The notes under the pieces: model-generated | Told to the model about the DNA's origin: nothing | What the model saw: only the letters and a program-made list of their open reading frames with translations | Database searches by the model: none | Shown here: piece after piece, positions 1-54,310 of the stretch | How the letters are laid out: each line of letters opens with the position of its first letter | Numbering within the stretch: position 1 is the stretch's first letter | IMG/VR virus record: IMGVR_UViG_2895374923_000001 | Coordinates: 27,860 to 91,859 of that record | DNA from: a virus | Taxonomy: Duplodnaviria > Caudoviricetes | Length of the DNA stretch: 64,000 nt | Strand: one strand, 5' to 3' | Translations under genes and position numbers: made by a program

Positions 1-1214
1 CTCGGGTGCTCGGCATCCTCGGGCGAGGTGATGCCCGCCTTCTCCAAGGGGACCAGCAATGAGCCGGCCGGGCCCTTCACATCCAGGCCGATCGCGACCG
101 GATCCCAGCGCTCCCTCAGCGCCACCAGCCGATCCACCACCCAGTCCGTTCCCGGCCGATGGTCGGCGACCTCCACATGACCGAGCCCATCACTGCGCAG
201 CCCATACACGGAGATGCAGGACGAGTCCCGCGACGGGGTGACATCCACGGCGAACGCCACATCACCCTGCCGGCGCGACTCCGGGTCGGTCAGCTTCAGC
301 CACGCCTCGACACTCAACTCGCTCGCGCCGTCGCTGGCCCGTGGCAGCCACGCGCCCAGCCGCTCGACGGAGAACTTGTCGCCGAGACCGGACGGCTTGG
401 CCTCGTCCTCGACGAACTCCTCGGTGATCCGGATGCCCAAGCTTGGGTTGCACGCGTACCACAAGTCGCGGTCCCGGGCAGCTCGCCGCCGGTCGGCCTC
501 GTTCGTGACATCCAGGTCGGCGCCCCAGTCGAAGTGCGCGATACGGTCAGCGCCCGCTTCGCCATCCGCGCGCAGGCCGTACGCCCACGCCGCCGGGTCA
601 TCAGGTGGGGTGCCGAAGAACCACTCCTGCGGGTTCGGCTGAGCCGACAGGGTCGGCAGCATGGCCGCCCGTTGTTGGGCGGTCAGCTCTTGCGCCTCGT
701 CGAGCACGTTCTTGCCGCCCGAGAAGCCGCGACCCGACGTCCGGCTGCGGGCCACGAACCTCAACCGTGCGCCGCCGGCCGACTTCGTCAGCTCGATGCC
801 CTGCTCTCCATTCGCCTGCCAGTAGCGGTTGACGCGCCGGTCCAGGTCCGGGGTCTGCTCGCACAGGCCCTTGATCCGCAGGTAAGCCTCTTGGGCAGTT
901 TTGTACTCGTGCGCGCTGTGCAGGATCAGCTTCTCGCCGAGCAGGAACAGCCAGCCGAGTTCCAGCGCCTCGATGATGCCGCCCTTGCCGTTCTGCCTGG
1001 GCACCCAGCACGAACACTTCGTGGCCGCCCACCGCCCGTCAGGGCGTTCGCCCAGGCCATGCGTCAGCACGAACTGCTGCCAAGGATCGAGCACCAGCCC
1101 CGCGGACTCGGCCAGGTCGATGAACTCCGGAGCCGCACTCACGGCGTAGCCAGGCCACCTACCCACCCGCGGCGTTTGCGCGCCGATCCGCACGTCTGGA
1201 AGCAAGCTCGTCAA
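1..1214 (-). CDS. terL: Terminase large subunit (runs off left edge; not in ORF track)
   Basis: Manual translation from TTG 1214: MTSLLPDVRIGAQTPRV...LDPWQ...VPRQNGKG (Walker A)...RGFSGGKNVLDEAQ (Walker B); homologous to 34995..36425. Confidence 0.93.
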   Translation of the reverse strand, partial: MTSLLPDVRIGAQTPRVGRWPGYAVSAAPEFIDLAESAGLVLDPWQQFVLTHGLGERPDGRWAATKCSCWVPRQNGKGGIIEALELGWLFLLGEKLILHSAHEYKTAQEAYLRIKGLCEQTPDLDRRVNRYWQANGEQGIELTKSAGGARLRFVARSRTSGRGFSGGKNVLDEAQELTAQQRAAMLPTLSAQPNPQEWFFGTPPDDPAAWAYGLRADGEAGADRIAHFDWGADLDVTNEADRRRAARDRDLWYACNPSLGIRITEEFVEDEAKPSGLGDKFSVERLGAWLPRASDGASELSVEAWLKLTDPESRRQGDVAFAVDVTPSRDSSCISVYGLRSDGLGHVEVADHRPGTDWVVDRLVALRERWDPVAIGLDVKGPAGSLLVPLEKAGITSPEDAEHP

Positions 1215-8846: not shown

Positions 8847-9188
8847 CTAGCCAACAGCGAGGGCGTCGTCGTGCGACGCCTCAGCCTTCATCCACTCGAT
8901 CCACGCAGCGAAGCACTCCACCGGAATACGGCGGGAGCGCGGCGTGGGCTTGACGCTCTTGAGACGCCCGGACTGAATTGCCCTGCGGATCGTGCCCTTG
9001 GACAGGGACGACTCCTGCTCAACACGGCGAGGAGTCATGAGCCGCGGGAGGTGCGCGTACGCGCTGAGGTCGATCTCGATCGGGTGGTTCGTGGACGACT
9101 TGCGCAGAGGGCGCTTCGGGGCAGCATCCGACAAGGGGGTTCCGACGTGCGTCTGTGCACACGTAGAATCAAGGCCGACTTGGCCCAT
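8847..9188 (-). CDS. Excisionase-like HTH protein
   Basis: LMTPRRVEQESSLSKGTIRRAIQSGRLKSVK...RRIP; AGGAGAA RBS. Confidence 0.75.
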   Translation of the reverse strand: MGQVGLDSTCAQTHVGTPLSDAAPKRPLRKSSTNHPIEIDLSAYAHLPRLMTPRRVEQESSLSKGTIRRAIQSGRLKSVKPTPRSRRIPVECFAAWIEWMKAEASHDDALAVG

Positions 9189-9375
9189 GGTGGTTCTCCT
9201 TGTTCCTGGAAGTTCAAGCGGGGTCATGCTGGGTTAAGTTGTCGGCCCCCTCAGTGGGATCGTGCGGTAGCAGGAGTTGCACCTCCTGTTACCTGCACCC
9301 CGCTGGGGGGCTTTGTGCTTTGCGGACACCAAGAGTCTCCGGGATTCCCCCAGACCCCTCCTTGGTCCACTACAT

Positions 9376-9404
9376 AAGCTAACGGGTCCGATGGTGGTTC
9401 ACAA
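9376..9404 (-). promoter_or_regulatory. Putative leftward promoter for the xis-pri-rep operon
   Basis: - strand TTGTGA-N17-TAGCTT. Confidence 0.5.
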
Positions 9405-9510
9405 CTCGCCTCGACCCTTGCAGCTTGCGCAAGGCGCAGGACGGGAGCCCAAGGACTTATGCGCATCCGCATAGCGCGACACAGAACGGCGTGTTCGAAT
9501 CCTTCTGGGC

Positions 9511-9867
9511 ACGTTGCTACTCGTTGCTACTCGTTGCCACTCGTTGCAGGAGACGAGGCTGATCGAGAGCGAAGCAATGTAACGCAGGACAACGCAAGCA
9601 GATGACTGAAGATGCATGAAGATCAGAGATAGTCAGAGATCGCCTGGTAGCAAGGCAGTCCTGGGCAGTTTTAGGCACCCGGACGGTGCGAAGGCTCCTC
9701 TGAACTGGTAGGGAACAGTAGGGAACAGAAGGAATCGTGTCGGCCTGGGGTTTCATGACAGCCCGCCATTCCTAAGCAGTGATCTCCGATGTGCACTTCT
9801 TCGCACACCCCAGGCAGTCCAGGAGATCCATGGGAGTCCCTAGAGTCTGTATAGGTCTGTAGAAGAC
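9511..9867. repeat. Array of about 7 different 10-bp-period tandem repeat clusters (operator-like)
   Basis: CGTTGCTAC-like x4, AACGCA x2-3, TGAAGAT x2, TCAGAGAT x2, GGCAGT x2-3, GTAGGGAACA x2, GTCTGTA x2. Confidence 0.8.
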
Positions 9868-9896
9868 TTGCGGCCATGCATGATGAAAGCTACCTT
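9868..9896 (+). promoter_or_regulatory. Putative promoter of the regulator-integrase operon (leaderless ATG 9904)
   Basis: TTGCGG-N17-TACCTT, with an in-frame ATG 7 nt later. Confidence 0.55.
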
Positions 9897-9903
9897 CTCA
9901 TGC

Positions 9904-10542
9904 ATGAGCTGTCCGCGATGTGCGCACCCTTGGCGCGTTCTGGACGCTCCTAACCCCACTCTGGAGATGCTCTTGACCGAGTTCGCCGACTGGCTCAGCA
10001 CGACCGCGAGGGGCCTCGGCTACCGCACGGACGCCCAGCTCGCTGCCGCCCTTGAAGTGCAGCAATCCACTGTCACGCGGTGGCGCAAGGGCAACCAGCC
10101 GCAGATCAAGCACCTGATCGAGATGGCCCGCCTCTTCCAGATGCCGGTGGCTCCCCTGCTTGTCCTGGCAGGCCACGTGCCGGCGGACCTCTTGGGGGGT
10201 GTAGAGCCTGCTGGGCTGCCAATGACGGAAAGTGTGCGACGGATTCGTGATGCGCCGCTGACTGACCTGCAGAAGAAGGCGTTGACCGTCTACTGGGACA
10301 AACGTCTCGCTGACGAGCGCCAGAAGTTGTCATATCTCATCGACTGGATCGCGGCCGGTGACAGCACGTCTCGGCAAGAGGCAGGTGACTCGCTGTTGGA
10401 CCTGATCACGCAGGGGGTCCGATCGCAGGCAGCCACTCACCTCATGGAACTGATCGAGACCCTTGTCGCAATCGAAGCGACGCCGCGAAAGCGACGCCGC
10501 CGCACAGTCCGCCAGGACTCCCCCGACGACATACCGGAGTAG
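9904..10542 (+). CDS. XRE-family repressor of the left element
   Basis: FADWL...DAQLAAALEVQQSTVTRWRKGNQP...LLVLAG; divergent from xis; start uncertain (9868-9967). Confidence 0.85.
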   Translation: MSCPRCAHPWRVLDAPNPTLEMLLTEFADWLSTTARGLGYRTDAQLAAALEVQQSTVTRWRKGNQPQIKHLIEMARLFQMPVAPLLVLAGHVPADLLGGVEPAGLPMTESVRRIRDAPLTDLQKKALTVYWDKRLADERQKLSYLIDWIAAGDSTSRQEAGDSLLDLITQGVRSQAATHLMELIETLVAIEATPRKRRRRTVRQDSPDDIPE

Positions 10543-10544: not shown

Positions 10545-11849
10545 ATGGCCGAGAGGAAGCCACGGACCCGAGGAAACCGCGAAGGCCGCCCCTACCAGCG
10601 CGCCTCTGACGGTCTATGGGTAGCGACCGTCTACCTACCGAACGGCCGAAGGAAACCCATCTACGGCAAGACCCGCGCGGAAGCAGTCAGCAAGAAGAAG
10701 ACGGCCGAGAAGGAGATCGCTGCGGGCCAGCCGGTCACTGCGGGGCGTACGGACACCCTCGCCCACTACCTGCTGAAGACCTGGGTGGGCGTGACCCTCC
10801 CACAGCGCGTCGCCGCCGGCCGACTGGCACCGAGCACACTCGACAGCTACCGCGAGAAGGTCGACCTGCACATCGTCCCGCACCTGGGCAAGGTCAAGCT
10901 GGTCGATCTTTCCACGAGACACATCCGGACCTGGTTACTGGAGTTGGCCGACAAGCCCAGCGGCAACCGGCGCCGCAAGCTCCGGCCGGGCGAGAAGAAG
11001 CTCCCCGAGCCCGAGAAGCTGTCGGCCCGGACTATCGCCTACTGTCACGCCGTGCTGCGCAAGGCGCTCGCCGACGCGGTGGATGACGAGATCATCGGGA
11101 AGAACGTGCTCACTCTGGTGGACGCGCCCTCGGTGGACAAGAAGGAGTTCAAGCCCCTCACCAAGGAGGAGGCTGCACGCTTCCTGGTCGAGGCCGCGCA
11201 TGACCGGCTGTGGGTGTACTGGCTAGTGCTTCTGGCCTTGGGCCTGCGCCGCGGCGAGGGACTCGGAATGCGGTGGTCGCACATCGACCTCGACGCGGGC
11301 TCCGTACGCCTGGAGAAGTCAGTTCAGCGGCTGCGCGGCGAGAAGAACGAAGCAACGGGCAGACGGAGCGGCCAACTGGTCGAGAAGCGGCTGAAGACCG
11401 TCGCAAGCAAGGCGACCGTGGCCATCCCCTCGACTGCTCTCCAAGCGTTGAAGGACCTGCATGAGACGCAGGAGGCCGACCGCGAGGGAGCCGACGTATG
11501 GATTGATCCCGACCTCGTCTTCTGTACCAGCCTCGGCACCCCCCTGGAGCCTCGCAACGTCAACCGGGCCTGGTACGCGCTGTGCAAGCGCGCAGACCTG
11601 CGTCAGGGGGATGACGAGGACGGGCTGAGGGTGCATGACCTCCGGCACGCCTGTGCCAGCTTCTTGTTCGCGAAGGGCAACGACATCAAGACGATCCAGA
11701 GTGTGCTGCGTCATGCCCGCCAGTCGACCACCAGCGATCTTTACGTGCACATCTTCGACGAGGTGAAGCGGAAGGCCGCCAAGACCATGGACAGCGTGCT
11801 GGTGGATCTCACGCAACAGCGCGCGAAGCGCAGGAAGGCGGCCTCATGA
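10545..11849 (+). CDS. int: Tyrosine integrase with N-terminal arm-binding domain
   Basis: REGRPYQRASDGLW...YGKT; LGLRRGE, HDLRH, LRH, DLYVH. Confidence 0.95.
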   Translation: MAERKPRTRGNREGRPYQRASDGLWVATVYLPNGRRKPIYGKTRAEAVSKKKTAEKEIAAGQPVTAGRTDTLAHYLLKTWVGVTLPQRVAAGRLAPSTLDSYREKVDLHIVPHLGKVKLVDLSTRHIRTWLLELADKPSGNRRRKLRPGEKKLPEPEKLSARTIAYCHAVLRKALADAVDDEIIGKNVLTLVDAPSVDKKEFKPLTKEEAARFLVEAAHDRLWVYWLVLLALGLRRGEGLGMRWSHIDLDAGSVRLEKSVQRLRGEKNEATGRRSGQLVEKRLKTVASKATVAIPSTALQALKDLHETQEADREGADVWIDPDLVFCTSLGTPLEPRNVNRAWYALCKRADLRQGDDEDGLRVHDLRHACASFLFAKGNDIKTIQSVLRHARQSTTSDLYVHIFDEVKRKAAKTMDSVLVDLTQQRAKRRKAAS

Positions 11850-11897: not shown

Positions 11898-11949
11898 ATA
11901 CGCGATCTTGGCATTCTGCGCGATCAAGGAAGTGCCTGGTCAGTACAAG

Positions 11950-12023
11950 CGCGCCCTGCAGGATTCGAACCTGCGACCGTCGGATTAGAAGTCCGATGCT
12001 CTATCCAGCTGAGCTAAGGGCGC
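11950..12023 (-). tRNA. tRNA-Arg, anticodon TCT (reads AGA); likely att site
   Basis: GCGCCCTTAGCTCAGCTGGATAGAGCATCGGACTTCTAATCCGACGGTCGCAGGTTCGAATCCTGCAGGGCGCG folds as a cloverleaf; CCA not encoded. Confidence 0.96.
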
Positions 12024-12139: not shown

Positions 12140-12691
12140 ATGGACCGACGCCGAAACTCTACCCCGCTTTATGCCCGTACCACCCTTAAGATCGCCGTGC
12201 TCGAGGCCGCGTCCCGTGGGGAGTTGGACAACCCCGAGGCCGTCATCGAATCCCTCATGCCGGCGGCCGACGCATTCGAGGCCGACGCACGAGAGCAGCT
12301 GCGCGCGCTTCACTCCCGGCTCGCCGAGCAGCAGGCGGCACACGAGGCGGAACGTGAACGCTGGGCCGACGAGAAGGCGCGCCTGATCAGGCAGTGCCAG
12401 CGTGCGGAGCGTGACCTGGTGGCAATCTCCGGCTGCCCGCAGAACGGCCCGCTGGAGGATCCGCATGGGTTCTACGTCTACTACCTCTGGGATCACCTTC
12501 AGCGAATCCTCTACATCGGCCGCTCGGCCAACATCTTCCGCCGCCTCGGCGAGCACGTTCTCAAGCGGGGCATCGGCATCTACCGAATTACGACGGTGCA
12601 GTGTCCCGATGCCGCCACCATGGAGCGCCTGGAGATGCAGGCGATCGCCGAGCATCAGCCGGAGTGGAACGTTCAGGGGGTGTCGGCGTGA
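12140..12691 (+). CDS. Coiled-coil plus C-terminal GIY-YIG nuclease-domain protein
   Basis: YVYYLWD...LYIGRS...RRLGEH...LEMQAIAEHQPEWN. Confidence 0.75.
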   Translation: MDRRRNSTPLYARTTLKIAVLEAASRGELDNPEAVIESLMPAADAFEADAREQLRALHSRLAEQQAAHEAERERWADEKARLIRQCQRAERDLVAISGCPQNGPLEDPHGFYVYYLWDHLQRILYIGRSANIFRRLGEHVLKRGIGIYRITTVQCPDAATMERLEMQAIAEHQPEWNVQGVSA

Positions 12692-13692
12692 TGGCCCGGC
12701 GCCCGGCCAAGGCCGCCAGATCCCCCAGACTCGCCGCACTCCTCGACTCGTGGGTGCTGGCGCTGGAGTCGGCCAACCGCTCCCCCGGCACCATCACCAG
12801 CTACCGCCACACGGTCACCCTGCTCACGACCTACCTGAGCCGGCACGAGCTGCCCGACACGGTCGCGGGCGTCGGGGCCGCGGAGATCCGCGCCTTCCAG
12901 CTCGCCACCCTGACCGGCTGCCGGGCCGGCGACGAGGCCGGCGGCGAAGGCGCGCCCTGCCCGTGCGGCGTTCGGCGGAGCAGCGCCGGCAATGCCGACA
13001 AACACCATCGCAATCTGAAGGCGTTCTTCAACTGGCTGATCGCCGACGGCGAGCTGGCCGGCCCGCATCCCATGACGACCGTCGCCCGCCCCACCGTGCC
13101 CGACGAGGCCGAGCCGGTCCTCACCGACGACGAACTACGCGACGTCCTCAATGAGTGTTCCGGCACCTCGTTCGAGGAGCGCCGCGACACGGCCATTCTT
13201 AGGATCTTCATGGACACCGGCGCACGCCTGGACTCCCTCGGCGGCCTGCGCTACAGCTCCGACCCCGAGGAGTCCGACGTCAACCTCGGCAAGAAGCTCT
13301 TGCGCATCCGGAAGAAGGGCGGCGACGTGATCTATGTGCCGCTCGGTAAAAAGGCGGCTCGCGACCTTGACCGTTACCTGCGCATCCGTGCCCTTCACCC
13401 GGACGCCGACAGCGAGTGGCTGTGGCTCGGCAAGCGCGGACGCCTGCAGAACTCCGGCATCCAGCAGATGCTCAAGCGCCGCGGCACCCGGGCCGGGGTG
13501 AACAACCTCCACGCCCACCGCTTCCGGCACCGCTTCGCCGACGACTGGCTGTCCGCGGGCGGTAACGCGCAGGACTTGATGCGGATCGCGGGATGGTCCA
13601 GCATCCAGATGGTGGGCCGGTACGGCAGGGCGGCGGCGGACCGGCGGGCGTGGCAGGCGCATGCTCGCCTGTCACCTGGTGACCGGATTTAG
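12691..13692 (+). CDS. int: Tyrosine recombinase/integrase of the prophage (Xer-like, no obvious arm domain)
   Basis: FMDTGARL, LHAHRFRH, AGW, GRY. Confidence 0.92.
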   Translation: MARRPAKAARSPRLAALLDSWVLALESANRSPGTITSYRHTVTLLTTYLSRHELPDTVAGVGAAEIRAFQLATLTGCRAGDEAGGEGAPCPCGVRRSSAGNADKHHRNLKAFFNWLIADGELAGPHPMTTVARPTVPDEAEPVLTDDELRDVLNECSGTSFEERRDTAILRIFMDTGARLDSLGGLRYSSDPEESDVNLGKKLLRIRKKGGDVIYVPLGKKAARDLDRYLRIRALHPDADSEWLWLGKRGRLQNSGIQQMLKRRGTRAGVNNLHAHRFRHRFADDWLSAGGNAQDLMRIAGWSSIQMVGRYGRAAADRRAWQAHARLSPGDRI

Positions 13693-14360: not shown

Positions 14361-14987
14361 TCACTCGCCCGGCTGGCGCCTTTCCCGATCCCGGCGTCGC
14401 CGCTCGGCGCGGAGGCGTTCGGCCTCGAAGATCTCGGCCCGGCGCTCCAGATACTTCTTGATCAGACGCTGCTTGACCTCGTCGGGGATGTCCTCAGCCT
14501 CGATCGCCGCGATGTGCCTGTCCTTCGGCAACGCGTCGGGAATGACCAGATCGCCCTCGTCCGCCAGGCCGGCCTCAAGGAGCAGCTGAGCCAGCGAGCG
14601 ACTTTCAACGCGCGCCAATTCTTTGAGGTCGGCGACCGCCTGGCGCGCCTCGTTCGGCACCAGAGGTAGGGCAACTTCGGCCGAGTCTTGGCGTAGAAGA
14701 TCTCTCAGGAAATCGGCGGCGTCCGTTCTTCCGGCTTCGGCAAGTTCCTCGGGCGTGAGCTTCGCAGCTCTCGCCATGTGAGCCAGAGTCGAGGCTGGCG
14801 CGATCACCTCTCGTGGAGGCTGGTCCTTGCCCATCGACTGGTACCCGCGCTCGATGTGGCCCCAATAGTCGGCAGTGATGCCTGCTTGCTCGGCCGCGTC
14901 ACCCATGGAGAGTTTGGGCCGCAGGCGCTGACGTGCTACTCGCAGCAGAGCGCCTTCCTTGGTGGACGGCGTGTGCTCGCGGGCCAT
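14361..14987 (-). CDS. Prophage immunity repressor (XRE HTH)
   Basis: LSMGDAAEQAGITADYWGHIERG...STLAHMARA; divergent from cro. Confidence 0.85.
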   Translation of the reverse strand: MAREHTPSTKEGALLRVARQRLRPKLSMGDAAEQAGITADYWGHIERGYQSMGKDQPPREVIAPASTLAHMARAAKLTPEELAEAGRTDAADFLRDLLRQDSAEVALPLVPNEARQAVADLKELARVESRSLAQLLLEAGLADEGDLVIPDALPKDRHIAAIEAEDIPDEVKQRLIKKYLERRAEIFEAERLRAERRRRDRERRQPGE

Positions 14988-15000
14988 GCCCGTCCCCTCA

Positions 15001-15150
15001 TCAGACTTATACAGACCTATATCCGCAGCATAGTGCACTGATGCAGCTCGCCAGACAACCCCCTACACCGCCATTCATTCATCACTACAGATCACTACTG
15101 AAAAATGCAGGCGAGGTCTGTTGTAGAAGTCTGTATAAGTCTGTAGTGTT
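15001..15150. promoter_or_regulatory. cI/cro switch: 10-bp-phased GTCTGTA/CTGTAG operator repeats and cro promoter
   Basis: CAGACTTATACAGACCTATA (15002-15021), ATCACTACAG/ATCACTACTG (15081-15100), AGTCTGTATAAGTCTGTAG (15128-15146); TTGTAG-N17-TAGTGT, then leaderless ATG 15157. Confidence 0.7.
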
Positions 15151-15156: not shown

Positions 15157-15411
15157 ATGACGACGATTCCCCGTCCTCCCAAGCTGCGGAGCCCTGGTCG
15201 CCCCCGCTACGCCAACGGCCTGGCCGTCCGCGAGAAGCGCGTGAAGGCCAAGCTCACTCAGGTTCAGCTCGCCGAGCTCGCCAACATCACCCAGCCGCAC
15301 GTGTCCGCTATCGAACTCGGGCGTTCCAGCCCTGGCGTCGAGGTCCTCCACCGACTGGCCGACATTTTCAAGTGCGAGGTCGGCGAGCTGATGATCAAGG
15401 CGGAAAGTTGA
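15157..15411 (+). CDS. Cro-like XRE regulator
   Basis: LTQVQLAELANITQPHVSAIELGRSSP. Confidence 0.9.
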   Translation: MTTIPRPPKLRSPGRPRYANGLAVREKRVKAKLTQVQLAELANITQPHVSAIELGRSSPGVEVLHRLADIFKCEVGELMIKAES

Positions 15412-34810: not shown

Positions 34811-35071
34811 ATGGCTGAGCTGGTCGAAGAGGTCGGGTCAGGCGACCGGCGCAGGGCGTTGAAGGCGTTGAGGGACAAGCTGGCGGCCGAGCTTTCGGGC
34901 TCGGAGGGGCGGACGTCGGCCGCGCTGGCGAAGGAGCTCGTGGCCGTGCTGAGGGAGCTGGATTCGCTGCCGTTGCCGAAGGAGGCGAGCTCTGTTGACG
35001 ATCTCGCCGCCAAGCGTGCTGCTCGGCGCGCAGGCGCCTCGGGTCTCGACGGTTCCACCTCGGTTCAGTAG
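34811..35071 (+). CDS. terS: Terminase small subunit
   Basis: Position; homology to 1159..1404. Confidence 0.85.
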   Translation: MAELVEEVGSGDRRRALKALRDKLAAELSGSEGRTSAALAKELVAVLRELDSLPLPKEASSVDDLAAKRAARRAGASGLDGSTSVQ

Positions 35072-36425
35072 CGCCGGCCAGGAGGCGGTCGAGCTCGCGG
35101 CGAGCGCGGGCCTGCATCTGGATCCGTGGCAGGCGCGCGCCCTGGATCTGGCGCTGGGTGAGCGTGCTGACGGCACGTGGGCGGCGTTCGAGGTGGGGCT
35201 GATCGTCGGCCGGCAGAACGGCAAGGGATCGGTGCTGGAGGCCAGGGAACTGGCCGGCCTGTTCCTCTTCGGCGAGCGGCTGCTGCTGCACTCGGCGCAC
35301 GAGTTCAAGACCAGCGGCGAGGCGTTCCTGCGGGTGAAGGCGCTGATCGACAACACCGATGATCTGCGGCGCCGGGTGGCGCGGATGCGGACCTCGCACG
35401 GCGAGGAGGGCATTGAGCTGATCGGCGGCCAGCGGCTGCGGTTCGTGGCCAGGTCCACCGGGTCGGGCCGCGGTTTCTCGGGCGACACGGTGATCTTGGA
35501 TGAGGCGTACGCGTTGACGGCGCCGATGATGGCCGCGCTGCTGCCGACGCTCAGCGCGAAGCCGAATCCGCAGGTCTGGTACGCGTCGTCGGCGCCGCTG
35601 CGCACCAGCGAGGTGCTGAAGAAGATCGTGGCGCGGGGCCGTGAGGGGTCGCCGCGGATGGCGTACCTGGAGTGGTCGGCGCCGCAGTCGGCCGCGTTGG
35701 ACGATCGTGAGGCGTGGGCGCAGGCCAACCCGGCGCTGGGGATCCGGATCAGCTCGGAGTTCGTCGAGGCCGAGCGGGTGGCGCTGGAAGAGGAGGAGTT
35801 CGCCCGGGAGCGGCTGGGCATCGGGGCGGACGACCAGTCCGGCATGGTGATCGACTTGGGCGCGTGGGCGGCGCTGGCCGACCCGGCGTCGCAGATGGCG
35901 GATCCGGTGGCGTTCTGCATGGACATGACGCCGGAGCGGTCGGTCGGGTCGATCGCGGCGGCCGGGCGGCGCGCGGACGGGCGGCTGCACGTCGAGGTGG
36001 TCGAGCACCGTCCGGGCACGGCGTGGATGGTGGCCCGGCTGCAGGAGCTGCGGGAGCGGTGGAAGCCGTGCGCAGTCGTGATCGACCCCGCCGGGCCGGC
36101 AGGGTCGCTGATCGCCGAGGTGGAGGCGTCCGGTGTCGAGGTGGTCAAGCCGTCGGCGCGCGAGCACGCGCAGGCGTGCGGCCAGCTGTACGACGCGGTG
36201 ATGCCGTCGCAGGGCGAGCCGACGCTGCGGCATCTGGGCCAGCTGCCGCTGAACACGGCGCTGGCGGGCGCCCGCAAACGGGATCTGGGCGATGCGTGGG
36301 CGTGGGCCCGCAAGGGCGTCTCGGTGGACATCAGCCCGCTGGTGGCGGTGACGCTCGCGGCGTGGGGGCACGCCACCCGTGCGCATCTGGAGGGGAGATC
36401 GACGCCATGGGTCGCGTTCGGCTGA
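34995..36425 (+). CDS. terL: Terminase large subunit
   Basis: LDPWQ, GRQNGKG, ILDEA, VDISPLVA. Confidence 0.95.
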   Translation: MTISPPSVLLGAQAPRVSTVPPRFSSAGQEAVELAASAGLHLDPWQARALDLALGERADGTWAAFEVGLIVGRQNGKGSVLEARELAGLFLFGERLLLHSAHEFKTSGEAFLRVKALIDNTDDLRRRVARMRTSHGEEGIELIGGQRLRFVARSTGSGRGFSGDTVILDEAYALTAPMMAALLPTLSAKPNPQVWYASSAPLRTSEVLKKIVARGREGSPRMAYLEWSAPQSAALDDREAWAQANPALGIRISSEFVEAERVALEEEEFARERLGIGADDQSGMVIDLGAWAALADPASQMADPVAFCMDMTPERSVGSIAAAGRRADGRLHVEVVEHRPGTAWMVARLQELRERWKPCAVVIDPAGPAGSLIAEVEASGVEVVKPSAREHAQACGQLYDAVMPSQGEPTLRHLGQLPLNTALAGARKRDLGDAWAWARKGVSVDISPLVAVTLAAWGHATRAHLEGRSTPWVAFG

Positions 36426-36428
36426 GCG

Positions 36429-36578
36429 ATGCGCAGAACTGAGGCGGCGGCGCTGCTGACGGCGGCGCTGGCGATGGTCGTGGGTGGGCTGGTGTGGCTG
36501 CTCGGCGCCATCGGCCTGATCATCCCTGGGGTGCTGCTGGCCGCGTTCGTCCTGCTCGTCGTCGAAATCAAGGAGTGA
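36429..36578 (+). CDS. Small membrane protein between terL and portal
   Basis: 49 aa, hydrophobic; typical position. Confidence 0.6.
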   Translation: MRRTEAAALLTAALAMVVGGLVWLLGAIGLIIPGVLLAAFVLLVVEIKE

Positions 36579-36582
36579 ACGC

Positions 36583-37887
36583 GTGAAGCTCTGGCGGTCA
36601 CTGCTCGGCCGAGACGATGAGAAGCGGTACAGCTTCTCCGACTGGGCCGCCGACAAGATGCTGTTCGGCGGCATGACCTACCCGCTGCTCGGCGGCGGAT
36701 GGTCGAAGTCGGAGGAGATCGAGCAGACGTTCCCCGGCTACGTGCAGGGCGCCTACAAGGCCAACGGCGTGGTTTTCGCCACCGTCTTGGCCCGGCTGCT
36801 GCTGTTCACCGAGGCGCGTTTCCAGTGGCAGCGCATGTCCGGCGGCCGGCCAGGCGACCTGTTCGGCACCCCAGACCTGGCGATTCTGGAGACGCCCTGG
36901 CCGAACGGGACAACGGGCGAGCTGCTGGCCAGGATGGAACAGGACGCCAGCCTCGGCGGCAACTTCTACGCCGCCCGCGAGACTGGCCGGATACGCCGGC
37001 TGCGGCCGGACTGGGTGTCGATCATCCTCACCGCGCCGCCGGACGAGGCCGTCGAGTCGGACGTGGCCGGCTATCTGTATCGGCCGGGTGGAATCGGCTC
37101 CCGGGCGGAGGGCCAGATCTACCTGCCGGACGAGGTGTGTCATTGGTCGCCCGTGCCGGATCCGGAGGCGCAGTACCGGGGCATGTCGTGGGTGACGCCG
37201 GTGGTGCGCGAGGTGCAGGCGGACAAGGCCGCGACGCTGCACAAGTCGCGCTTCTTCGACAACGCCGCCACGCCCAACCTCGCGGTGTCGTTCAAAGAGA
37301 GCGTCACCAAGGAGCAGTTCAAGGAGTTCATGGAGGCGATGAACGCCGCCCACCAGGGCGTCGACAACGCCTACCGGACCCTGTATCTCGGGGGCGGCGC
37401 GGACGTGACCGTCGTCGGCGCCGATCTGCGCCAACTCGACTTCAAGCAGACCCAGGGTGCCGGGGAGACGAGGATCACCGCCGCCGGTGGTGTCCCCGCG
37501 GTGATCGTGGGCCTGTCCGAGGGGCTGCAGGCCGCCACCTACAGCAACTATGGGCAGGCTCGCCGCAAGTTCGGCGACCACTGGGCGCGCCCGCAGTGGC
37601 GTTCGGCCGCCGCTGCTTTGTCGGTTCTCCTTCCCGCGCAGGGCGGCGGCGTGCGGCTCTGGTACGACGACGCCAACATTGCCTTCCTGCGTGAGGACCG
37701 GAAAGACATCGCCGAGATCCAGGCGATGGAGGCCCAGACGATCCGCACCCTTGGCGACGCCGGATACGAGCCTGATTCGGTGAAAGCTGCCGTCAAGGCC
37801 AACGACTGGAGCCTGCTCGTGCACTCGGGCCTCTACTCGGTTCAGCTTCAACCCGCCGGGACGCAACCGGCCCTGCCTGCCGCATAG
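36583..37887 (+). CDS. Portal protein (HK97-like)
   Basis: LGGNFY...LRPDWV...YRGMSWV...FFDNAATP. Confidence 0.92.
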   Translation: MKLWRSLLGRDDEKRYSFSDWAADKMLFGGMTYPLLGGGWSKSEEIEQTFPGYVQGAYKANGVVFATVLARLLLFTEARFQWQRMSGGRPGDLFGTPDLAILETPWPNGTTGELLARMEQDASLGGNFYAARETGRIRRLRPDWVSIILTAPPDEAVESDVAGYLYRPGGIGSRAEGQIYLPDEVCHWSPVPDPEAQYRGMSWVTPVVREVQADKAATLHKSRFFDNAATPNLAVSFKESVTKEQFKEFMEAMNAAHQGVDNAYRTLYLGGGADVTVVGADLRQLDFKQTQGAGETRITAAGGVPAVIVGLSEGLQAATYSNYGQARRKFGDHWARPQWRSAAAALSVLLPAQGGGVRLWYDDANIAFLREDRKDIAEIQAMEAQTIRTLGDAGYEPDSVKAAVKANDWSLLVHSGLYSVQLQPAGTQPALPAA

Positions 37888-37895
37888 GAGCACTC

Positions 37896-38693
37896 ATGGA
37901 AACCCTGCGCGAGCTCGATCTGGTTCGCGCCGTGCCGGCGTGCGTGGAGCTGCGCGCAGACGGCGACGGCGGCGAAGGGACCGACACGCTCGGCACCATG
38001 GTCGGCCACTTCTCCGTGTTCGACACCTGGTACCGGATCCGCTCGTTCTGGGAGGGCGACTTCATGGAGTCGATCGCCCCGGGCGCCTTCCGCAAGACGA
38101 TGGCCGAGCGGCGCGATCAGATCGTGGTGGCCTTCGACCACGGCTATGACCCGGTCATCGGCGACAAGGTGCTCGGCCCGATCGACGACCTGCGCGAGGA
38201 CGGGACGGGCGGCTACTACGAGGTCGGGCTGCTGGACACCAGCTACAACCGCGACCTGCTGCCCGCCCTCAAGCGCGGCCTGTACGGCTCCAGCTTCCGC
38301 TTCCAGGTGATCAAGGACGAGTGGGACGACGAGCCCGAGCGCTCCGACCACAACCCCGACGGCGTCCCCGAGCGCACCATCCGGGAGGTGCGCCTGTATG
38401 AGTTCGGGCCCGTCACCTATCCGGCCAACCCCGCCGCGACCGCCGGGATGCGCTCGATGAGCGGCATGACCGACCAGTACTACGAGCGCCTGCGCGCCAG
38501 AGGCGCCCAGCAGATCGACGACCTGCTGGCGCGAGCGCGCGCGCTTCGCACTCCCGACCTCGCAGCCGCCCCCGCGGGCACTGCGGAGCAGGGAGCCGCA
38601 CCCGTTGCCGACGAGCCGGTGAACCACCACTCGCGCGGTCTGTCCGTGAGCTCCAGGAGCCGACTCCTGGAGCTTGAGTTCCTTGCTTCATAG
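37896..38693 (+). CDS. HK97-family prohead protease
   Basis: GHFSVF...ESIAPGAF...FDHG...SFRF...LYEFGPVTYPANP. Confidence 0.92.
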   Translation: METLRELDLVRAVPACVELRADGDGGEGTDTLGTMVGHFSVFDTWYRIRSFWEGDFMESIAPGAFRKTMAERRDQIVVAFDHGYDPVIGDKVLGPIDDLREDGTGGYYEVGLLDTSYNRDLLPALKRGLYGSSFRFQVIKDEWDDEPERSDHNPDGVPERTIREVRLYEFGPVTYPANPAATAGMRSMSGMTDQYYERLRARGAQQIDDLLARARALRTPDLAAAPAGTAEQGAAPVADEPVNHHSRGLSVSSRSRLLELEFLAS

Positions 38694-38703
38694 GGAGCAG
38701 ACC

Positions 38704-40110
38704 ATGAATCCGAGTGAGAGGCTGGCAGCCGTCGAGGACGAGCTGCGGGCCATCCACGAGGCGGCCGGAGACGAGCCGCTCACCGACGAGCAGCAGGCCC
38801 AGTGGGATGAGCTGCGCAGCGAGCGCGGCCGGCTGCAGGAGACGATCCGCCGCCAGGAGGAGCGCCGGGAGGAGGTGCGCAGCCTGGCCGAGCGGCCCGG
38901 CCGTACCGAGGCCGGCGACGGCGCCCGCGGCGCCCCGCAGGTTATGACGAAGGTGGACCCGTTTGCCGTGCTGGAGGATCGCAGCCTGCACGGCGGCGAC
39001 CTGCAGCGGGCGCTGACCGACGCCAATCTGAAGGCGCTGGAAGAGCGTGACCTGGGCGGTGCCGACAACGAGCGGCACGTCGAGACGCTGCTGCGGCGGC
39101 ATGGCGGCGACACCCGGTGGGCATCCAACCTGCTCGCGCGCTCCCGGCCGGAGTACGAGGCCGGGTTCTCCAAGATGATGACGGGCAGGCAGGAGTACCT
39201 GACCTACGAGGAGCGCGCCGCGATGGCCGTCGGTACGGCTACCGCCGGCGGGCTGCTCGTGCCGACCCACCTGGACCCGACGCTGATCCTGACCAATGCC
39301 GGGACCTCGAACGTGATCCGTGGCATCGCGCGGGTGGTGACGCTGACGGTCGGCAATGTCTGGCACGGCGTCACCACGGCGGGCGTGACCGCGTCGTGGG
39401 ACGGCGAACTCGTCGAAGTATCCGATGACACGCCGGCGCTCGCCGCCGCGACCGTCTCGACCGTGCAGGCGCAGTCGCTGGTGCAGGCGTCCATCGCCGC
39501 GTTCGAGGACATCGCCGGCCTCAGCTCGGACGTGCTGATGCTGTTCGCCGACGCCCGCGACCGGCTGGAGGGCGCCGCGCACGCGACCGGCTCCGGTTCC
39601 GGTCAGCCGAAGGGCATCTTCACCGCGGTCAACGCCTCCGCCTCGCTGCAGGTCACCTCGACCACGGCGGCGACGATCGGCCTGGTCGACCTGCACTCGC
39701 TGTATCGGACGCTGCCGGTGCGTTGGCGCGGCCGCGGCACGTGGCTGACCAACCCGCTCTACAGCCTGGCAATCAAGGCGCTGGGCACCGCGGTGTCGGC
39801 GAGCTTCTCGACCGACATCACGCAGGCGATGGCAGGAAGCCTGCTGGGCCGGCCGCTGGTGGAGTCGGACGACGCGCCGACTACGCAGACCACGACCGCG
39901 CTCGACAACGAGATCATCTTCGGAGACTTCTCCGGATACACGATCGTGGACATGCCGGGTGGGTTCTCGGTGGAGTTCATCCCGCACATGTTCAACACCG
40001 CCAACAACCTGCCGGACGGCCGCAGGGCCTGGTTCGCATACTGGCGCAACGGCGCCGACGCGACCAATCTGGCCAGCTTCCGGATGCTGGTGGACAAGAC
40101 CAGCGCCTGA
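38704..40110 (+). CDS. Major capsid protein (HK97 fold, delta domain)
   Basis: Coiled-coil N-terminus, GGLLVP, G.G.GQPKGI, LLGRPL, IIFGDFS. Confidence 0.93.
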   Translation: MNPSERLAAVEDELRAIHEAAGDEPLTDEQQAQWDELRSERGRLQETIRRQEERREEVRSLAERPGRTEAGDGARGAPQVMTKVDPFAVLEDRSLHGGDLQRALTDANLKALEERDLGGADNERHVETLLRRHGGDTRWASNLLARSRPEYEAGFSKMMTGRQEYLTYEERAAMAVGTATAGGLLVPTHLDPTLILTNAGTSNVIRGIARVVTLTVGNVWHGVTTAGVTASWDGELVEVSDDTPALAAATVSTVQAQSLVQASIAAFEDIAGLSSDVLMLFADARDRLEGAAHATGSGSGQPKGIFTAVNASASLQVTSTTAATIGLVDLHSLYRTLPVRWRGRGTWLTNPLYSLAIKALGTAVSASFSTDITQAMAGSLLGRPLVESDDAPTTQTTTALDNEIIFGDFSGYTIVDMPGGFSVEFIPHMFNTANNLPDGRRAWFAYWRNGADATNLASFRMLVDKTSA

Positions 40111-40187
40111 CGTGTGGAGGCCCTGGCGCGCTGCGGGGCCGGGGCCTCCATCACCTTCCCGCCGGCCCCTACTAAGGAGATGTCGCC

Positions 40188-40445
40188 ATGCCGATGCGCG
40201 TGCGCGAACGCTACAAGGCCGAACCGTGCGCCCTGCTCGACCCGAAGAGCGGCGCCCACATCGTGCCCGACCCGACCCGCCAGTACGCCGACGACGATCC
40301 GGTGGTGCTCAACGCGCCCTGGTACTTCATCGCCGAGGGCGAGCAGGACGAGCCTGCGCCGGACTCTGTGCGGATCGCCGAGGTCGAGCAGGCGACGACC
40401 GCGCCCGGCGAGCGGCGGACGACGCGGCGGCCGAAGGCGAAGTGA
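40188..40445 (+). CDS. Small capsid-adjacent protein
   Basis: VEQATTAPGERR motif; TAAGGAG upstream. Confidence 0.75.
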   Translation: MPMRVRERYKAEPCALLDPKSGAHIVPDPTRQYADDDPVVLNAPWYFIAEGEQDEPAPDSVRIAEVEQATTAPGERRTTRRPKAK

Positions 40446-41248
40446 AGCGCGGCAGCGTGGTCGTCGGGTTCCTCGACGACGGCCAATGGGCGGCATCGTT
40501 CGGGCTGTCGTATCGGGACCTGTGCCTATATGACGTGATGTCGCAGCAGCGGATCGTGCGCGAGGGCGGCCGGGAGTTGCGGCAGATGTGCGGGACGGGC
40601 GGCATCGCCGAGGGCCGCAACGAGGTAGCCAGGAGCTTTCTCGACCAGACCGACGGCGAGTGGCTGTTCTTCGTCGACACCGACATGGGCTTCGCCCAGG
40701 ACACCGTGGACCGCCTGGTGGCCGCCGCCGATCGCTACCGGCGGCCGGTCATGGGCGGGCTGTGCTTCGCCCAGCGCCGCACCGGGACCGGCGAGCTGTA
40801 CGCGCCGGAGTTCGCGATCGTGCCCACCTGCTACGCCTACGCGGAGCTGGAGGACGAGCTCGGGTTCGTGCCGATGCCGGACTACGGCCGCGACCAGGTC
40901 GTCGAAGTGGCCGCCACCGGCGCTGCCTGCCTGCTGATCCACCGGCGGGCGCTGGAGAAGATCCGCGAACGCTACGGCGAGGCGTGGTTCGACCCGATCA
41001 CCCACCCGACCGGGCTGCGAGGCGGGCGCCGCGTCTTCTCCGAAGACCTGTCGTTCTGCGTCCGCTGCCAGGCCGCCGACATCCCGGTGCACGTGGACAC
41101 GCGGGTGAAGACGAGCCACGAAAAGGGCGGCATCTATCTGACCGAACAGGCGTTCGACCGCCAGCAGAAGGGCAAGGAGGTGGGCGATGGCGCTGGGCGA
41201 CCCCTACGCGACGCTGGCACAGCTGAAGTCGTACCTGCAGGTGTCTGA
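40442..41248 (+). CDS. GT-A/GT2-like glycosyltransferase
   Basis: GRNEVARSFL...WLFFVDTDMGF (DxD)...TGAACLLIHR...FSEDLSFC. Confidence 0.85.
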   Translation: MKRGSVVVGFLDDGQWAASFGLSYRDLCLYDVMSQQRIVREGGRELRQMCGTGGIAEGRNEVARSFLDQTDGEWLFFVDTDMGFAQDTVDRLVAAADRYRRPVMGGLCFAQRRTGTGELYAPEFAIVPTCYAYAELEDELGFVPMPDYGRDQVVEVAATGAACLLIHRRALEKIRERYGEAWFDPITHPTGLRGGRRVFSEDLSFCVRCQAADIPVHVDTRVKTSHEKGGIYLTEQAFDRQQKGKEVGDGAGRPLRDAGTAEVVPAGV

Positions 41249-41798
41249 CGCCGTCGACGACGGCGAGCTGACCGGTGCGCTGACCTCCAGCTCGCGCGAG
41301 ATCGAGAAGCACTGCAACCGGCAGTTCAACAAGGCGACCTCGGCGACGGCCCGCATCTACTACCCCGACAGCGCCTGCCTGGCCTACGTCGACGACTTCT
41401 GGACGACGTCCGGCCTGGTCGTGAAGACCGACGACGGTGACGACGGCACGTTCGAGACGACCTGGGCCACCACCGACTTCCAGCTCGAGCCTCTGAACGC
41501 AGTCGTGGACGGCGAGAGCGGCTGGGCGTACTGGAGGATCCGGGCCATCTACAGCCGGTGCTTCCCCATCACCAGCCGGCGGGCGCCGCTGCAGGTGACC
41601 GCGCAGTGGGGCTGGGCCGCCGTGCCGGCGCCGGTGCAGCAGGCGTGCCTGATCCTCTCAGCCGAGGTGTTCAAGCTCAGGTCGGCGCCGTTCGGGGTGG
41701 CCGGGTTCGGCGAGTATGGCGCGATCCGCGTGCGGGAGAACCCGAAGGTGTGCGCGCTGCTGAAGCCGTATGAGCGCAACCGGATCCTGGTCGGCTGA
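41187..41798 (+). CDS. Head-tail adaptor
   Basis: YATLAQLK...SREIEKHCNRQF...GWAAVPAPVQQAC. Confidence 0.85.
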   Translation: MALGDPYATLAQLKSYLQVSDAVDDGELTGALTSSSREIEKHCNRQFNKATSATARIYYPDSACLAYVDDFWTTSGLVVKTDDGDDGTFETTWATTDFQLEPLNAVVDGESGWAYWRIRAIYSRCFPITSRRAPLQVTAQWGWAAVPAPVQQACLILSAEVFKLRSAPFGVAGFGEYGAIRVRENPKVCALLKPYERNRILVG

Positions 41799-42217
41799 TG
41801 GCGCCGACTATCGCGCAGGTGATGCAGGGCATCGAGGCCCGGCTGGCCACCATCGCCGGGCTGCGGGTCGACGACGTCGTGCCCGACCAGATCAACCCGC
41901 CGGCCGCGCTGGTCGGGGTGCCGCCGATCCCGACCTACCACCAGACGATGGGCCGCGGCCGGTTCATGCTCGAGCCGACCGTGACCGTGCTGGTGTCGGC
42001 CGCGGTCGACCGCGCCGGCCAGCTGGCGCTGGCCGGCTACGCCAACCCGACCGGGCCGCTGTCGGTGCTGGCCGCCATCGAGGGCGACCGCACGCTCGGC
42101 GCGGTGGTCGAGGACTGCATCGTCATCGACTTCCGGCCGCTCGGCCTCGAAGAGGTGGGCCAGATCGGCTACTACGGCGGCGTCTTCACTCTGCGCGTCA
42201 TCGCGCTCGGAACCTGA
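41798..42217 (+). CDS. Tail terminator/completion protein
   Basis: RLATIAGLRV...PPAA...AIEGDRTLG. Confidence 0.75.
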   Translation: MAPTIAQVMQGIEARLATIAGLRVDDVVPDQINPPAALVGVPPIPTYHQTMGRGRFMLEPTVTVLVSAAVDRAGQLALAGYANPTGPLSVLAAIEGDRTLGAVVEDCIVIDFRPLGLEEVGQIGYYGGVFTLRVIALGT

Positions 42218-42228
42218 GGTGGGTGGCT

Positions 42229-42456
42229 GTGGCTGAGGAGCTCTCGTTCGCCGAGAAGATCCGTACCGTCGGGCTCCTGTCACGCGGGCGGTCGGGGCCT
42301 CGAGTGCGTGAGGGGCGCCGCGCGGACGGGGTGCGCGTCAAGGCGACGATCGACGAGCTCGGCAACACCACCACCGAGCACGCCACCCGCGACGACCGGG
42401 TCGATGTCGCACTACGCCCACAAACGATCACCGTGTTGCGGAATGGAGAGTCGTGA
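42229..42456 (+). CDS. Hypothetical structural-region protein
   Basis: GAGGTG RBS; coupled. Confidence 0.55.
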   Translation: MAEELSFAEKIRTVGLLSRGRSGPRVREGRRADGVRVKATIDELGNTTTEHATRDDRVDVALRPQTITVLRNGES

Positions 42457-42692
42457 TGTCCTCAGCAGAACGCGCGGCCGGCCTGCGCGCTCAAGCGGAC
42501 GCACTCGAGCGCCTGGCGGAGCTCGAGGCGGACCTGGCCACGGCCAAGAGCGCCCATGCCGCAGACCCGACGCCGGAGAGCAAAGCGGCCAAGCAGGAGA
42601 CGGCGCTGGCTCTGCGTCAGGCCCGCGCGCTCGTCCGTGAGGACGGAGTGGCGGTCGGCGGCGACGCTTTCATCAGCACCGAGGGAGACTGA
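42456..42692 (+). CDS. Small helical protein
   Basis: Coupled ORF. Confidence 0.65.
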   Translation: MSSAERAAGLRAQADALERLAELEADLATAKSAHAADPTPESKAAKQETALALRQARALVREDGVAVGGDAFISTEGD

Positions 42693-42695
42693 GTC

Positions 42696-43145
42696 GTGGC
42701 CATCACCGCATCGGGCCTGTACGTGGCCACGTTCGTCGACGTGCTCGACACCACCCAGCTTGCGCTGGACCTCGACCTTGAGACGCACAAGGTCGCCATG
42801 TTCACCAATAGCATCACGCCGAACTTCACCTCGGACACGGCCTACGGCGCCTCGCCGTACGACGCCAACGAGGTGTCCGGCACCGGCTACAGCGCGGGTG
42901 GCGTGGCGCTGACGTCGACGACGTTCACCGGCGCATCGGGTACGTCGACGTTCGACGCCGCGGACACCTCGTGGTCGTCCTCGACGATCACCAACGCGCG
43001 CGGCGCGCTCATCTACGCCGACGCGCTGGCCGGCAACAACGCAATCTGCCTGGTGAACTTCGGCGCCGACTACTCCACGCAGGCCGGCCTGTTCCTGATC
43101 ACCTGGAGTGCCTCCGGCATCTTCGCCATCGACCTCACCCCGTAG
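42696..43145 (+). CDS. Putative fibre/collar-associated structural protein
   Basis: NEVSGTGYSAGG...FDAAD.SW...ARGALIY...NFG.D. Confidence 0.7.
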   Translation: MAITASGLYVATFVDVLDTTQLALDLDLETHKVAMFTNSITPNFTSDTAYGASPYDANEVSGTGYSAGGVALTSTTFTGASGTSTFDAADTSWSSSTITNARGALIYADALAGNNAICLVNFGADYSTQAGLFLITWSASGIFAIDLTP

Positions 43146-43153
43146 GAGATGTG

Positions 43154-43417
43154 ATGGCCGTCCTGAGCGCCCTCGCCCGGGCCCGCACCGCAGCTCAGTG
43201 GATGCGGGAGAACAAAGAGGTCTGCACCTTCAGCAAGACCGATCTGCGTGCGGCGATCGACGCTGCCGACGACTGGCTCGAGGCCAAGCTGCCCGAGTAC
43301 AACCTGGCCCTCCCGGCCGCATTCCGGAGCGCGGCGAGCCCCGATCAGAAGGCGTGGGTGCTCGCGTTTGTGCTGTGGCGGCGGATCGGCCGGCTGCGCG
43401 CGGATGAGGATGGCTGA
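43154..43417 (+). CDS. Hypothetical protein
   Basis: AGGAG RBS. Confidence 0.65.
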   Translation: MAVLSALARARTAAQWMRENKEVCTFSKTDLRAAIDAADDWLEAKLPEYNLALPAAFRSAASPDQKAWVLAFVLWRRIGRLRADEDG

Positions 43418-43920
43418 TGGCGACGGTCTACTGCCCCCTCATGCCGGAGGGCGCGTCCTTCCTCACCTCCTCCTTTCCCGCCTTCCGGACCATCCCGGGC
43501 ACGAACTTCCCCGTCACCGTGCTGGCTTACGACGCCGCGGCCCAGGAGAACGCCTACTGGAAGTTCATCCCGTTCAACTACGGATCCGGCAACCTCACGC
43601 TGGAAGCCTTCTGGTACGCCGACACCGCGTCGTCCGGCGTCGTGCGGTGGGACGCGGCCATCGCCGCCATCACCGCGAACACCGACAGCCAGGACGTCGA
43701 AACCGATGGGCTGGCGACCGCCCAGGCCGTCGACGACACCCACCTGGGCACCACCGGCCAGCGGCTGCACTCGGTGACCCTGACGATCTCCAACCTCGAC
43801 TCGATCGCCGCCCTGGACGCCTGTTTCATCCGGGTCTCCCGCCTCGGCAACCACGCCAACGACACCATGGCGGGCGACGCCTTCCTCGAGCGCGCCTACC
43901 TGAGCTGGTCCGACACCTGA
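43417..43920 (+). CDS. Beta-rich structural protein
   Basis: Coupled ORF; composition. Confidence 0.65.
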   Translation: MATVYCPLMPEGASFLTSSFPAFRTIPGTNFPVTVLAYDAAAQENAYWKFIPFNYGSGNLTLEAFWYADTASSGVVRWDAAIAAITANTDSQDVETDGLATAQAVDDTHLGTTGQRLHSVTLTISNLDSIAALDACFIRVSRLGNHANDTMAGDAFLERAYLSWSDT

Positions 43921-43930
43921 CGAGGCGAGC

Positions 43931-46372: not shown

Positions 46373-46387
46373 GCGAGGGAGCCCTTT

Positions 46388-46732
46388 GTGACGACGCGCC
46401 GCGATCTCACGCTCATCCAGGTCAACGACGAAACCGTCGACCTGGCCATCACCCAGCACGACTCGGGAGCGGCGCAGGATCTGACCGGCGCCACGGTCGA
46501 GTGCTACCTGAAGCCGACCGCGCAGACCGCCGACGACGGCGCCGGCGTGACGAAGCTGTCGACCGCAACCGGCGAGATCACCATCACCTCGGCCGTCGGC
46601 GGCACCTGCCAGATCGCCGTGCCCGCCGCTGCGCTGACCACCGCCGGCACGCGCTGGTGGCGCGCCGACGTGATCCTGTCGGGCAAGCGCCGGACCTGCG
46701 TGTACGGGCCGCTGCACGTCGTGGACGCCTGA
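46388..46732 (+). CDS. BppU-N-like fibre adaptor/baseplate protein
   Basis: AQDLTGATV...GEITIT...G...V. Confidence 0.7.
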   Translation: MTTRRDLTLIQVNDETVDLAITQHDSGAAQDLTGATVECYLKPTAQTADDGAGVTKLSTATGEITITSAVGGTCQIAVPAAALTTAGTRWWRADVILSGKRRTCVYGPLHVVDA

Positions 46733-46766
46733 TCTGAGCCCTGCCATCTGAGTTGAAGGAGACGAC

Positions 46767-46949
46767 GTGCCCAGATATCGCGTGATCGGGCCCTGCGAGG
46801 TCGCGGGCGTGCAGCCCGGCGGCGTCATCACCGAGTTCCCCGCCGGCGTCAACGTCGAGGCGCTCATCCAGGGCGGCCACATCGAGCCCACCGAGGACAA
46901 GCCCGCCGAAGCCAAGCAGGCAGCCAAGCCTAGGGGCGGCACCCAGTGA
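46767..46949 (+). CDS. Small tail-region protein
   Basis: YRVIG...EALIQGGHIEP. Confidence 0.7.
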   Translation: MPRYRVIGPCEVAGVQPGGVITEFPAGVNVEALIQGGHIEPTEDKPAEAKQAAKPRGGTQ

Positions 46950-47674: not shown

Positions 47675-47734
47675 CCCACCCGACCCCTTTTAGCCATCGC
47701 GAGCGCGGTGGCTTTCGTCGTTCAAGGAGAAGCG

Positions 47735-49120: not shown

Positions 49121-49121
49121 C

Positions 49122-52442: not shown

Positions 52443-52443
52443 C

Positions 52444-54309: not shown

Positions 54310-54310
54310 C

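Follow-up and report, generated by a model that had tools for sequence, protein, structure and literature searches.

Co-resident prophages are known to influence one another mostly through protein-protein contacts (antirepressors) or small-molecule signals, and in homoimmune pairs operators in two co-resident prophages are read by one repressor. To our knowledge, there are few examples of a DNA site in one phage that directly reads the repressor or Cro of another. [quoted passage not shown] P2 C-type HTH repressors are described as reading non-palindromic direct repeats at the early promoter, with operators that differ between heteroimmune relatives (PMC2995052, PMC1904268). Antirepressor cross-talk coordinates induction among the Gifsy prophages of Salmonella and between a Listeria phage and a monocin (PMC3121763, PMC9043618); both systems act protein-to-protein on repressors, whereas the link considered here would be a DNA site.

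How prophages sense one another in polylysogeny is the question addressed in this work. We analysed a stretch of 64,000 nucleotides (the window), which begins at base 27861 of contig 2 in an 11.39-Mb Nonomuraea genome of 71% GC and covers parts of two prophages, named A and B, inserted head-to-head. Next to a promoter of A lies a segment nearly identical to DNA of the B switch, and we present it as a specific candidate for inter-prophage wiring in an actinobacterium. The genes and switch region of A in the window are:

1..1214, minus strand: 3' part of the large terminase gene, which starts at 1214 and runs off the left window edge (the portal to endolysin genes lie outside)
8847..9227, minus strand: excisionase-like HTH_17 protein, first gene of the leftward (lytic) operon
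9228..9835, no strand: long switch region, with several unrelated 10-bp-period direct-repeat arrays and a conserved leader hairpin at ~9245-9311
9904..10542, plus strand: XRE-type regulator, putative prophage repressor (Pfam HTH_3, PHROG repressor families)
10545..11849, plus strand: tyrosine integrase, followed by two arm-type repeats at 11877-11900

The original prediction, made from the window, took A for a satellite and B for its helper, and contrasted the pair with SaPI-type derepression. A satellite (PICI or cf-PICI-like) that senses a helper prophage through binding of helper CI or Cro would agree with the A genes visible in the window, which are only int, regulator, xis, primase-polymerase, helicase, HNH and terminase genes, and the shared site that it invokes is real. 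However, the 46-bp att repeat of A (window 11947-11992) has an exact copy 25 kb left of the window, at contig 2 2400-2445. In a BLAST search of the contig with the tRNA region, the two repeats (2400-2445 and 39807-39852 of contig 2) are 37.4 kb apart, and no internal att copy was found within A. The genes to the left of the switch are all minus-strand, in the order Xis-like protein, primase-polymerase, D5-type helicase, HNH endonucleases and large terminase, and beyond it, in the same orientation and left of the window, portal, protease, major capsid, major tail, tape measure, minor tail and endolysin. The same complete synteny at the same tRNA site is seen in a relative of A in the genus (G024), with head proteins 71–87% identical. 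Satellites are small (roughly 7–20 kb between their own att repeats) and need a helper for virion and lysis genes that they lack in part or entirely; A is larger and carries the full set. A is therefore a complete temperate phage of 37.4 kb, B is not its helper, and the comparison with SaPI/PICI derepression does not apply; we regard the satellite reading as practically untenable. The window edge cuts through a full prophage, and the early arm left inside it passed for an actinobacterial satellite, a tempting mis-annotation that is hereby corrected. Two HNH endonuclease genes are found in A (1506-1925 and 5696-6226), one of them adjoining the terminase genes; an HNH endonuclease beside terminase is the usual partner of cos-type packaging.

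The second prophage, B, is also complete and measures ~59 kb. The tRNA gene and the B genes are:

11947..12023, minus strand (tRNA 11949-12023): tRNA-Arg(TCT), with the A att repeat in its 3' half (11947-11992) and the B att repeat in its 5' half (11982-12023)
12601..13692, plus strand: tyrosine integrase of B
14361..14987, minus strand: CI-like repressor of B (HTH_31, without S24 peptidase domain; supported start ATG 14987)
15157..15411, plus strand: Cro-like HTH_3 protein of B
34995..58208, plus strand: structural and lysis genes of B (terminase, portal, protease, capsid, tape measure, endolysin)

Both prophages are temperate and of siphovirus type. In each, a tyrosine integrase gene adjoins an att repeat that duplicates part of the tRNA gene, and both have complete head, tail and lysis modules and a divergent repressor/early-gene switch. 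The repeat of A comprises the 3' 44 nt of tRNA-Arg(TCT) and a further 2 nt, that of B the 5' 42 nt, and the second att copy of B is at window coordinate 71200-71241 (contig 2 99060-99101), 7 kb right of the window; the A and B repeats have 11 nt in common, in the anticodon loop. One tRNA gene is used from both halves by two integrases, and as a consequence of this head-to-head insertion the two switches are 5.3 kb apart. The intact tRNA gene lies between the two int genes, so that its upstream region is prophage B DNA, and tRNA is the only known RNA family detected in the region. Between the tRNA and the integrase gene of B there is an ORF with a GIY-YIG nuclease domain (12140-12691), which overlaps the 5' end of the integrase ORF. 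ARAGORN also called a tRNA-Arg(CCG) at 49252-49328, inside the B tape-measure gene; since the PHROG tape-measure match begins upstream of the call, it is probably a false positive.

A and B have tail and lysis proteins 75–81% identical and terminases 48% identical, with no early or regulatory protein in common. Their distal tail and endolysin genes (52444-58208 against contig 2 11653-16970) share 77% nucleotide identity over 3.8 kb, and outside them the two genomes are much more distant. This identity indicates a recent exchange of modules and probably a common receptor; by their shared tail and lysis proteins, the two lineages have met and recombined in the same hosts.

The shared DNA and the promoter beside it are located as follows:

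9836..9864, plus strand: candidate B-type operator copy of prophage A, one degenerate unit (9836-9844) and then two perfect ones (9845-9854, 9855-9864)
9868..9907, plus strand: promoter of the A repressor-int operon (-35 at 9868-9873, 17-nt spacer, -10 at 9891-9896)
14999..15021, minus strand: predicted cI-proximal operator pair of B, two units toward cI, ending 11 nt before the cI start codon
15116..15149, plus strand: predicted cro-proximal operator of B, three units covering the cro promoter

Both sites are built of 10-bp head-to-tail units with the core TCTGTA, the period being 10 bp in A and 10–13 bp in B, and the two perfect units of A have the same spacing and orientation as those of the B operator. 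On inspection no dyad symmetry was found in the units, which are direct repeats, unlike lambda-type operators, whose dyads are read by a dimer. B additionally has a single unit on the minus strand near 15085-15093. By direct reading, 9844-9862 and 15128-15146, both on the plus strand, are identical at 18 of 19 positions, and the sole mismatch (position 11, G vs A) sits at a unit position that is also variable among B's own units. The 12-mer core 9850-9861 is the exact reverse complement of 15010-15021, in the repeat upstream of the prophage repressor. Both matches had been called correctly in the original prediction, and so had the promoter geometry: the A site ends 5 bp before the -35, and the B site fills the spacer of the cro promoter (-35 at 15121-15126, -10 at 15144-15149, start codon 7 nt after the -10). 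In A, the -10 is framed by an 8-bp inverted repeat (9876-9883 / 9898-9905), the likely operator of A itself; the promoter hexamers and this inverted repeat are conserved in relatives whose regulators are 37–64% identical. A strict sigma-70 scan of the A and B switches detected neither promoter, and the promoter calls are therefore based on conservation in relatives.

The match had been judged too good for chance, and the statistics agree. With up to three mismatches allowed, the 19-mer occurs in the 64-kb window only at 9844, at 15128 and, on the minus strand, at 14999-15017, while 100 shuffles gave no occurrence. When the 676-bp switch region of A is compared with the 169-bp switch region of B, the top 19-mer scores 18. 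The best score in 3000 dinucleotide-preserving shuffles was usually 13–14, reached a maximum of 17 once, and was never 18. A plain BLAST against the whole genome gives E=6, which is not significant; the significance comes from the AT-rich composition of the match together with the fact that the hit falls in the switch region of the other prophage. Counted over the whole genome at the same tolerance, the 19-mer has no copies beyond these three sites in the A and B switches, which argues against a host-factor motif. A host regulator, for instance a response regulator, whose site is exploited by both prophages would explain why two unrelated switch types share a core, and direct repeats with a period of 10–11 bp are typical of winged-helix response regulators. 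Yet even the relaxed pattern CTGTA-N5-CTGTA occurs genome-wide only at the two plus-strand sites of the 19-mer, against 15 occurrences of the reversed control pattern. GTCTGTA-N3-GTCTGTA was present in 3 of 109 other species of the genus, all within unrelated GC-rich repeats. A host site thus seems highly improbable. Scans for the exact motif in other actinobacteria and in viral contigs gave chance hits only, in low-GC taxa.

In B, the units are placed as in a lambda-type layout, three over the lytic promoter and two separating the cI promoter from the cI start, between divergent cI and cro genes. We looked for the same placement in nine relatives of the B CI, namely that of a soil metagenome contig (L043, 65% identity) and eight others in the genus, 38–48% identical over the HTH domain. 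The N-terminus of the B CI aligns with the 65% identical homologue, which supports the start at 14987. L043 and seven of the eight distant relatives carry tandem units with a CTGTA or CTCTG core, ~10 bp apart, within 30 nt before cI, so that the cI-proximal arrangement of B recurs; L016 has a different tandem repeat upstream of cI, and L015 has only a single CTGTA, near the mapped start. In three of them (L043, L007 and L008) units are also found on the cro side, in opposite orientation. The cro promoter has the same geometry in B and L043 (-35, 17 nt with two units, -10, start codon 6–7 nt on), and the CI recognition helix is nearly identical in the two. From this family-wide placement, the shared promoter geometry and the near-identical helix, the units are the predicted cognate operators of B's CI/Cro-type switch. 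No relative of the B CI with a solved structure was found.

Homologous repressors would be a simple reason for shared operators, and a homoimmune pair was considered. Both candidates were rejected, as the A and B regulators are without similarity. BLASTP of the A regulator against B CI or Cro gave E of 1 or more, neither the A regulator nor the Xis-like protein nor the integrase resembles B CI or Cro, and no CI or Cro homologue was found anywhere in prophage A. The A regulator has an alternative start at 9967, used by public gene calls (189 aa).

The position of the units in A can be compared with the corresponding position in other A-type elements. The 25–30 bp that adjoin the -35 on its upstream side vary from one A-type relative to the next: G024, L103 and L116 have an arm-site-like repeat, G074 has a palindrome and A has the B-type units, whereas the length between the conserved blocks on either side is constant or shifted by exactly 10 bp. 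The recognition helix of the A regulator is invariant in relatives 52–60% identical overall, and the wHTH domain of the Xis-like protein is nearly invariant. Since the DNA-reading parts do not vary and the site does, the conserved DNA-binding proteins of A do not explain the A-specific site, and among the proteins of the genome only B CI and Cro would be expected to read it. An A-type element from another data set (L102, regulator 64% identical to A's) carries, directly upstream of its -35, a segment identical at 22 of 23 positions to the cI-upstream segment of L043. The identity extends beyond the repeat units into the flank, and the best of 1500 shuffles scored 20. A sister of this element (L115) has a more diverged version of the B-type-like segment, which looks partly decayed. 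Given the L102/L043 identity, B-type switch DNA appears to have entered the same A-type spot more than once, or to have been kept there and re-matched.

These observations also bear on the possibility that the copy in A was left behind by recombination or short-patch gene conversion between two related, host-sharing phages now 5 kb apart; it might then bind a protein but would have no selected role. Module exchange between A and B, the turnover of the stretch upstream of the -35, a hot spot in A-type phages, and the decayed look of the L115 segment would all be expected of such a relic. On the other hand, both units in A are intact and exactly phased at 10 bp, with the mismatch only where the units vary naturally. 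The patch is surrounded by A-type sequence on both sides, which would require two crossovers in ~30 bp, and the same position in L102 holds a segment matched to a different B-type phage. We consider a relic improbable.

A more serious competitor is that the units belong to A itself, as an operator native to the A type that is bound by the XRE regulator or the Xis/Cox-like HTH_17 protein of A. The match with the B operator would in that case imply that the A protein has access to the B switch as well, with cross-talk running from A to B, or that proteins of A and B compete for one set of sites. Direct repeats one helical turn apart, a spacing found in the units of both A and B, are the typical targets of Xis/Cox-like proteins. 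The recombination directionality factors (RDFs) P2 Cox and 186 Apl are described as binding such repeats and regulating the switch (PMC3936717; PMC7498355). The A switch has a layout like that of P2 and 186, with a repressor-int operon facing a xis-led lytic operon. Further, A-type switch regions contain a conserved block, perhaps the lytic promoter, surrounded by long phased arrays of 10–11-bp units, many of which begin with CTGT, and in or near these arrays G024, G074 and L100 have one TCTGTA pair each, on the other strand and at another place. The G024 pair is 17/19 identical to that of A; the pairs of G024 and G074 are unique within their own genomes, and no B-type CI was found in either genome. 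The motif may therefore be an old intrinsic feature of A-type phages, and not a capture from B. Against this reading, the site differs from relative to relative while the DNA-reading parts of the regulator and Xis are (nearly) invariant, and conserved TGCRYR-type motifs and the inverted repeat at the -10 already offer the invariant regulator an operator. An Apl/Cox-like RDF would be expected to bind at the att sites too, but no TCTGTA-type unit was found near either att site of A, nor anywhere else in A or B. Moreover, two non-homologous proteins that read a 19-mer identical at 18 of 19 positions would need an explanation of their own. On balance, an intrinsic A-type operator seems unlikely to us, although not remotely so.

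We therefore return to binding by B proteins, which is the most economical reading since the site is of B type, no host motif accounts for it and A regulators include no CI or Cro homologue. With moderate confidence, we propose that B CI or Cro occupies the A site beside the -35 of the repressor-int promoter and so couples the two prophages. The core of the original prediction, that CI or Cro of one element reads the DNA of the other, is in keeping with these results once satellite and helper are replaced by two complete phages. In a double lysogen, B CI would sit on the A units, at about -60 to -40 from the likely start of the repressor-int transcript, where it could help or hinder RNA polymerase; the effect would be activation from a -35-adjacent position, or repression by spreading over the -35. 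On induction of B, CI would be lost and Cro would appear, and either change would alter the supply of A repressor. Expression of the A repressor and integrase would thus depend on the state of B, and A would be held or released with it. The logic would be that a prophage gains by leaving a cell that its neighbour is about to lyse. Looping between the A and B sites, 5.3 kb apart in cis, is conceivable. Which of the two B proteins would read the units is suggested by position alone, and since the A units lie outside the core promoter, a regulatory effect of their occupation is not guaranteed. A short candidate site, which differs little from its source, is unique in the genome and lies precisely beside a conserved promoter, makes the proposal testable.

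Set against the described systems, the A/B locus shares with P2 Cox and P4 the tandem repeats about one helical turn apart beside a promoter of a different co-resident element. It differs in that A and B are both complete phages and that an XRE-type CI or Cro, in place of an RDF, would be the binder. P4 also has six or more units whose binding changes its state, against two to three units known from sequence only in A/B. As with Stx Cro and phiNP, a heterologous Cro is predicted to act on the control region of another prophage in a polylysogen. For phiNP there is a measured effect and a modelled site, whereas here the site is 18/19 identical and known from sequence alone; unlike phiNP, the A/B pair resides in an actinobacterium, has direct-repeat operators and is adjacent on one tRNA gene. 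The B operators resemble those of the P2 C-type in being direct repeats of an HTH repressor, with a unit spacing here of 10 bp and no sequence relation found between B CI and solved structures. Unlike homoimmune pairs, A and B have unrelated repressors, and A has one small orphan copy beside its own, different operators.

The placement of units in several A-type elements allows a broader, more tentative suggestion, which we think possible but doubtful: the A-type lineage of Nonomuraea prophages may keep a B-type operator pair in its own switch as a listening post. Position and orientation would vary, at the lysogeny promoter in A and L102 and at the putative lytic promoter in G024 and G074, with flanks matched to particular partner phages. 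If so, an A-type prophage would choose between silence and induction partly by the repressor state of its partner, and would escape a cell that the partner will lyse. A second co-resident pair was sought in the two closest A-type relatives and rejected, as their -35-adjacent repeats and TCTGTA pairs are without genome partners. No species with both A-type and B-type phages was found in 110 genomes of the genus, and in a family-wide sample of species-representative genomes only one (G288) had both hits, which were distant (38% and 44%) and in an arrangement that is not comparable. No relative of the A or B regulator above 65% identity was found in a set of 5.8 billion proteins.

The genome contains a second A-type regulator (46% identity; contig 11 230099-230491) and a second B-type CI-like HTH protein (41% identity; contig 53 589655-589927), which presumably belong to other prophages or remnants; neither locus carries the 19-mer. 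The A switch region measures ~680 bp, and its relatives share the design with reshuffled arrays. We considered whether the other arrays of A match other prophages, as an operator library would, and discarded the idea, since only the TCTGTA pair has a partner in the genome. The leader of the xis-led operon of A contains a long, stable hairpin (9245-9311, minus strand; -54 kcal/mol, z = -4.4) within the sole switch block that is strongly conserved in G024 and G074; attenuation or processing may be its role. Finally, the integrase arm-type repeat (core GTTGCTAC) flanks both A att sites (11877-11900, and contig 2 2538-2556 at A's far end), and its copy after the int stop codon is kept in three relatives. 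It is also present as 3.5 tandem copies with 10-bp spacing inside the A switch (9512-9550), and the similar repeat of G024, L103 and L116 lies directly against the -35 of the repressor promoter; the integrase of A may double as a switch regulator.
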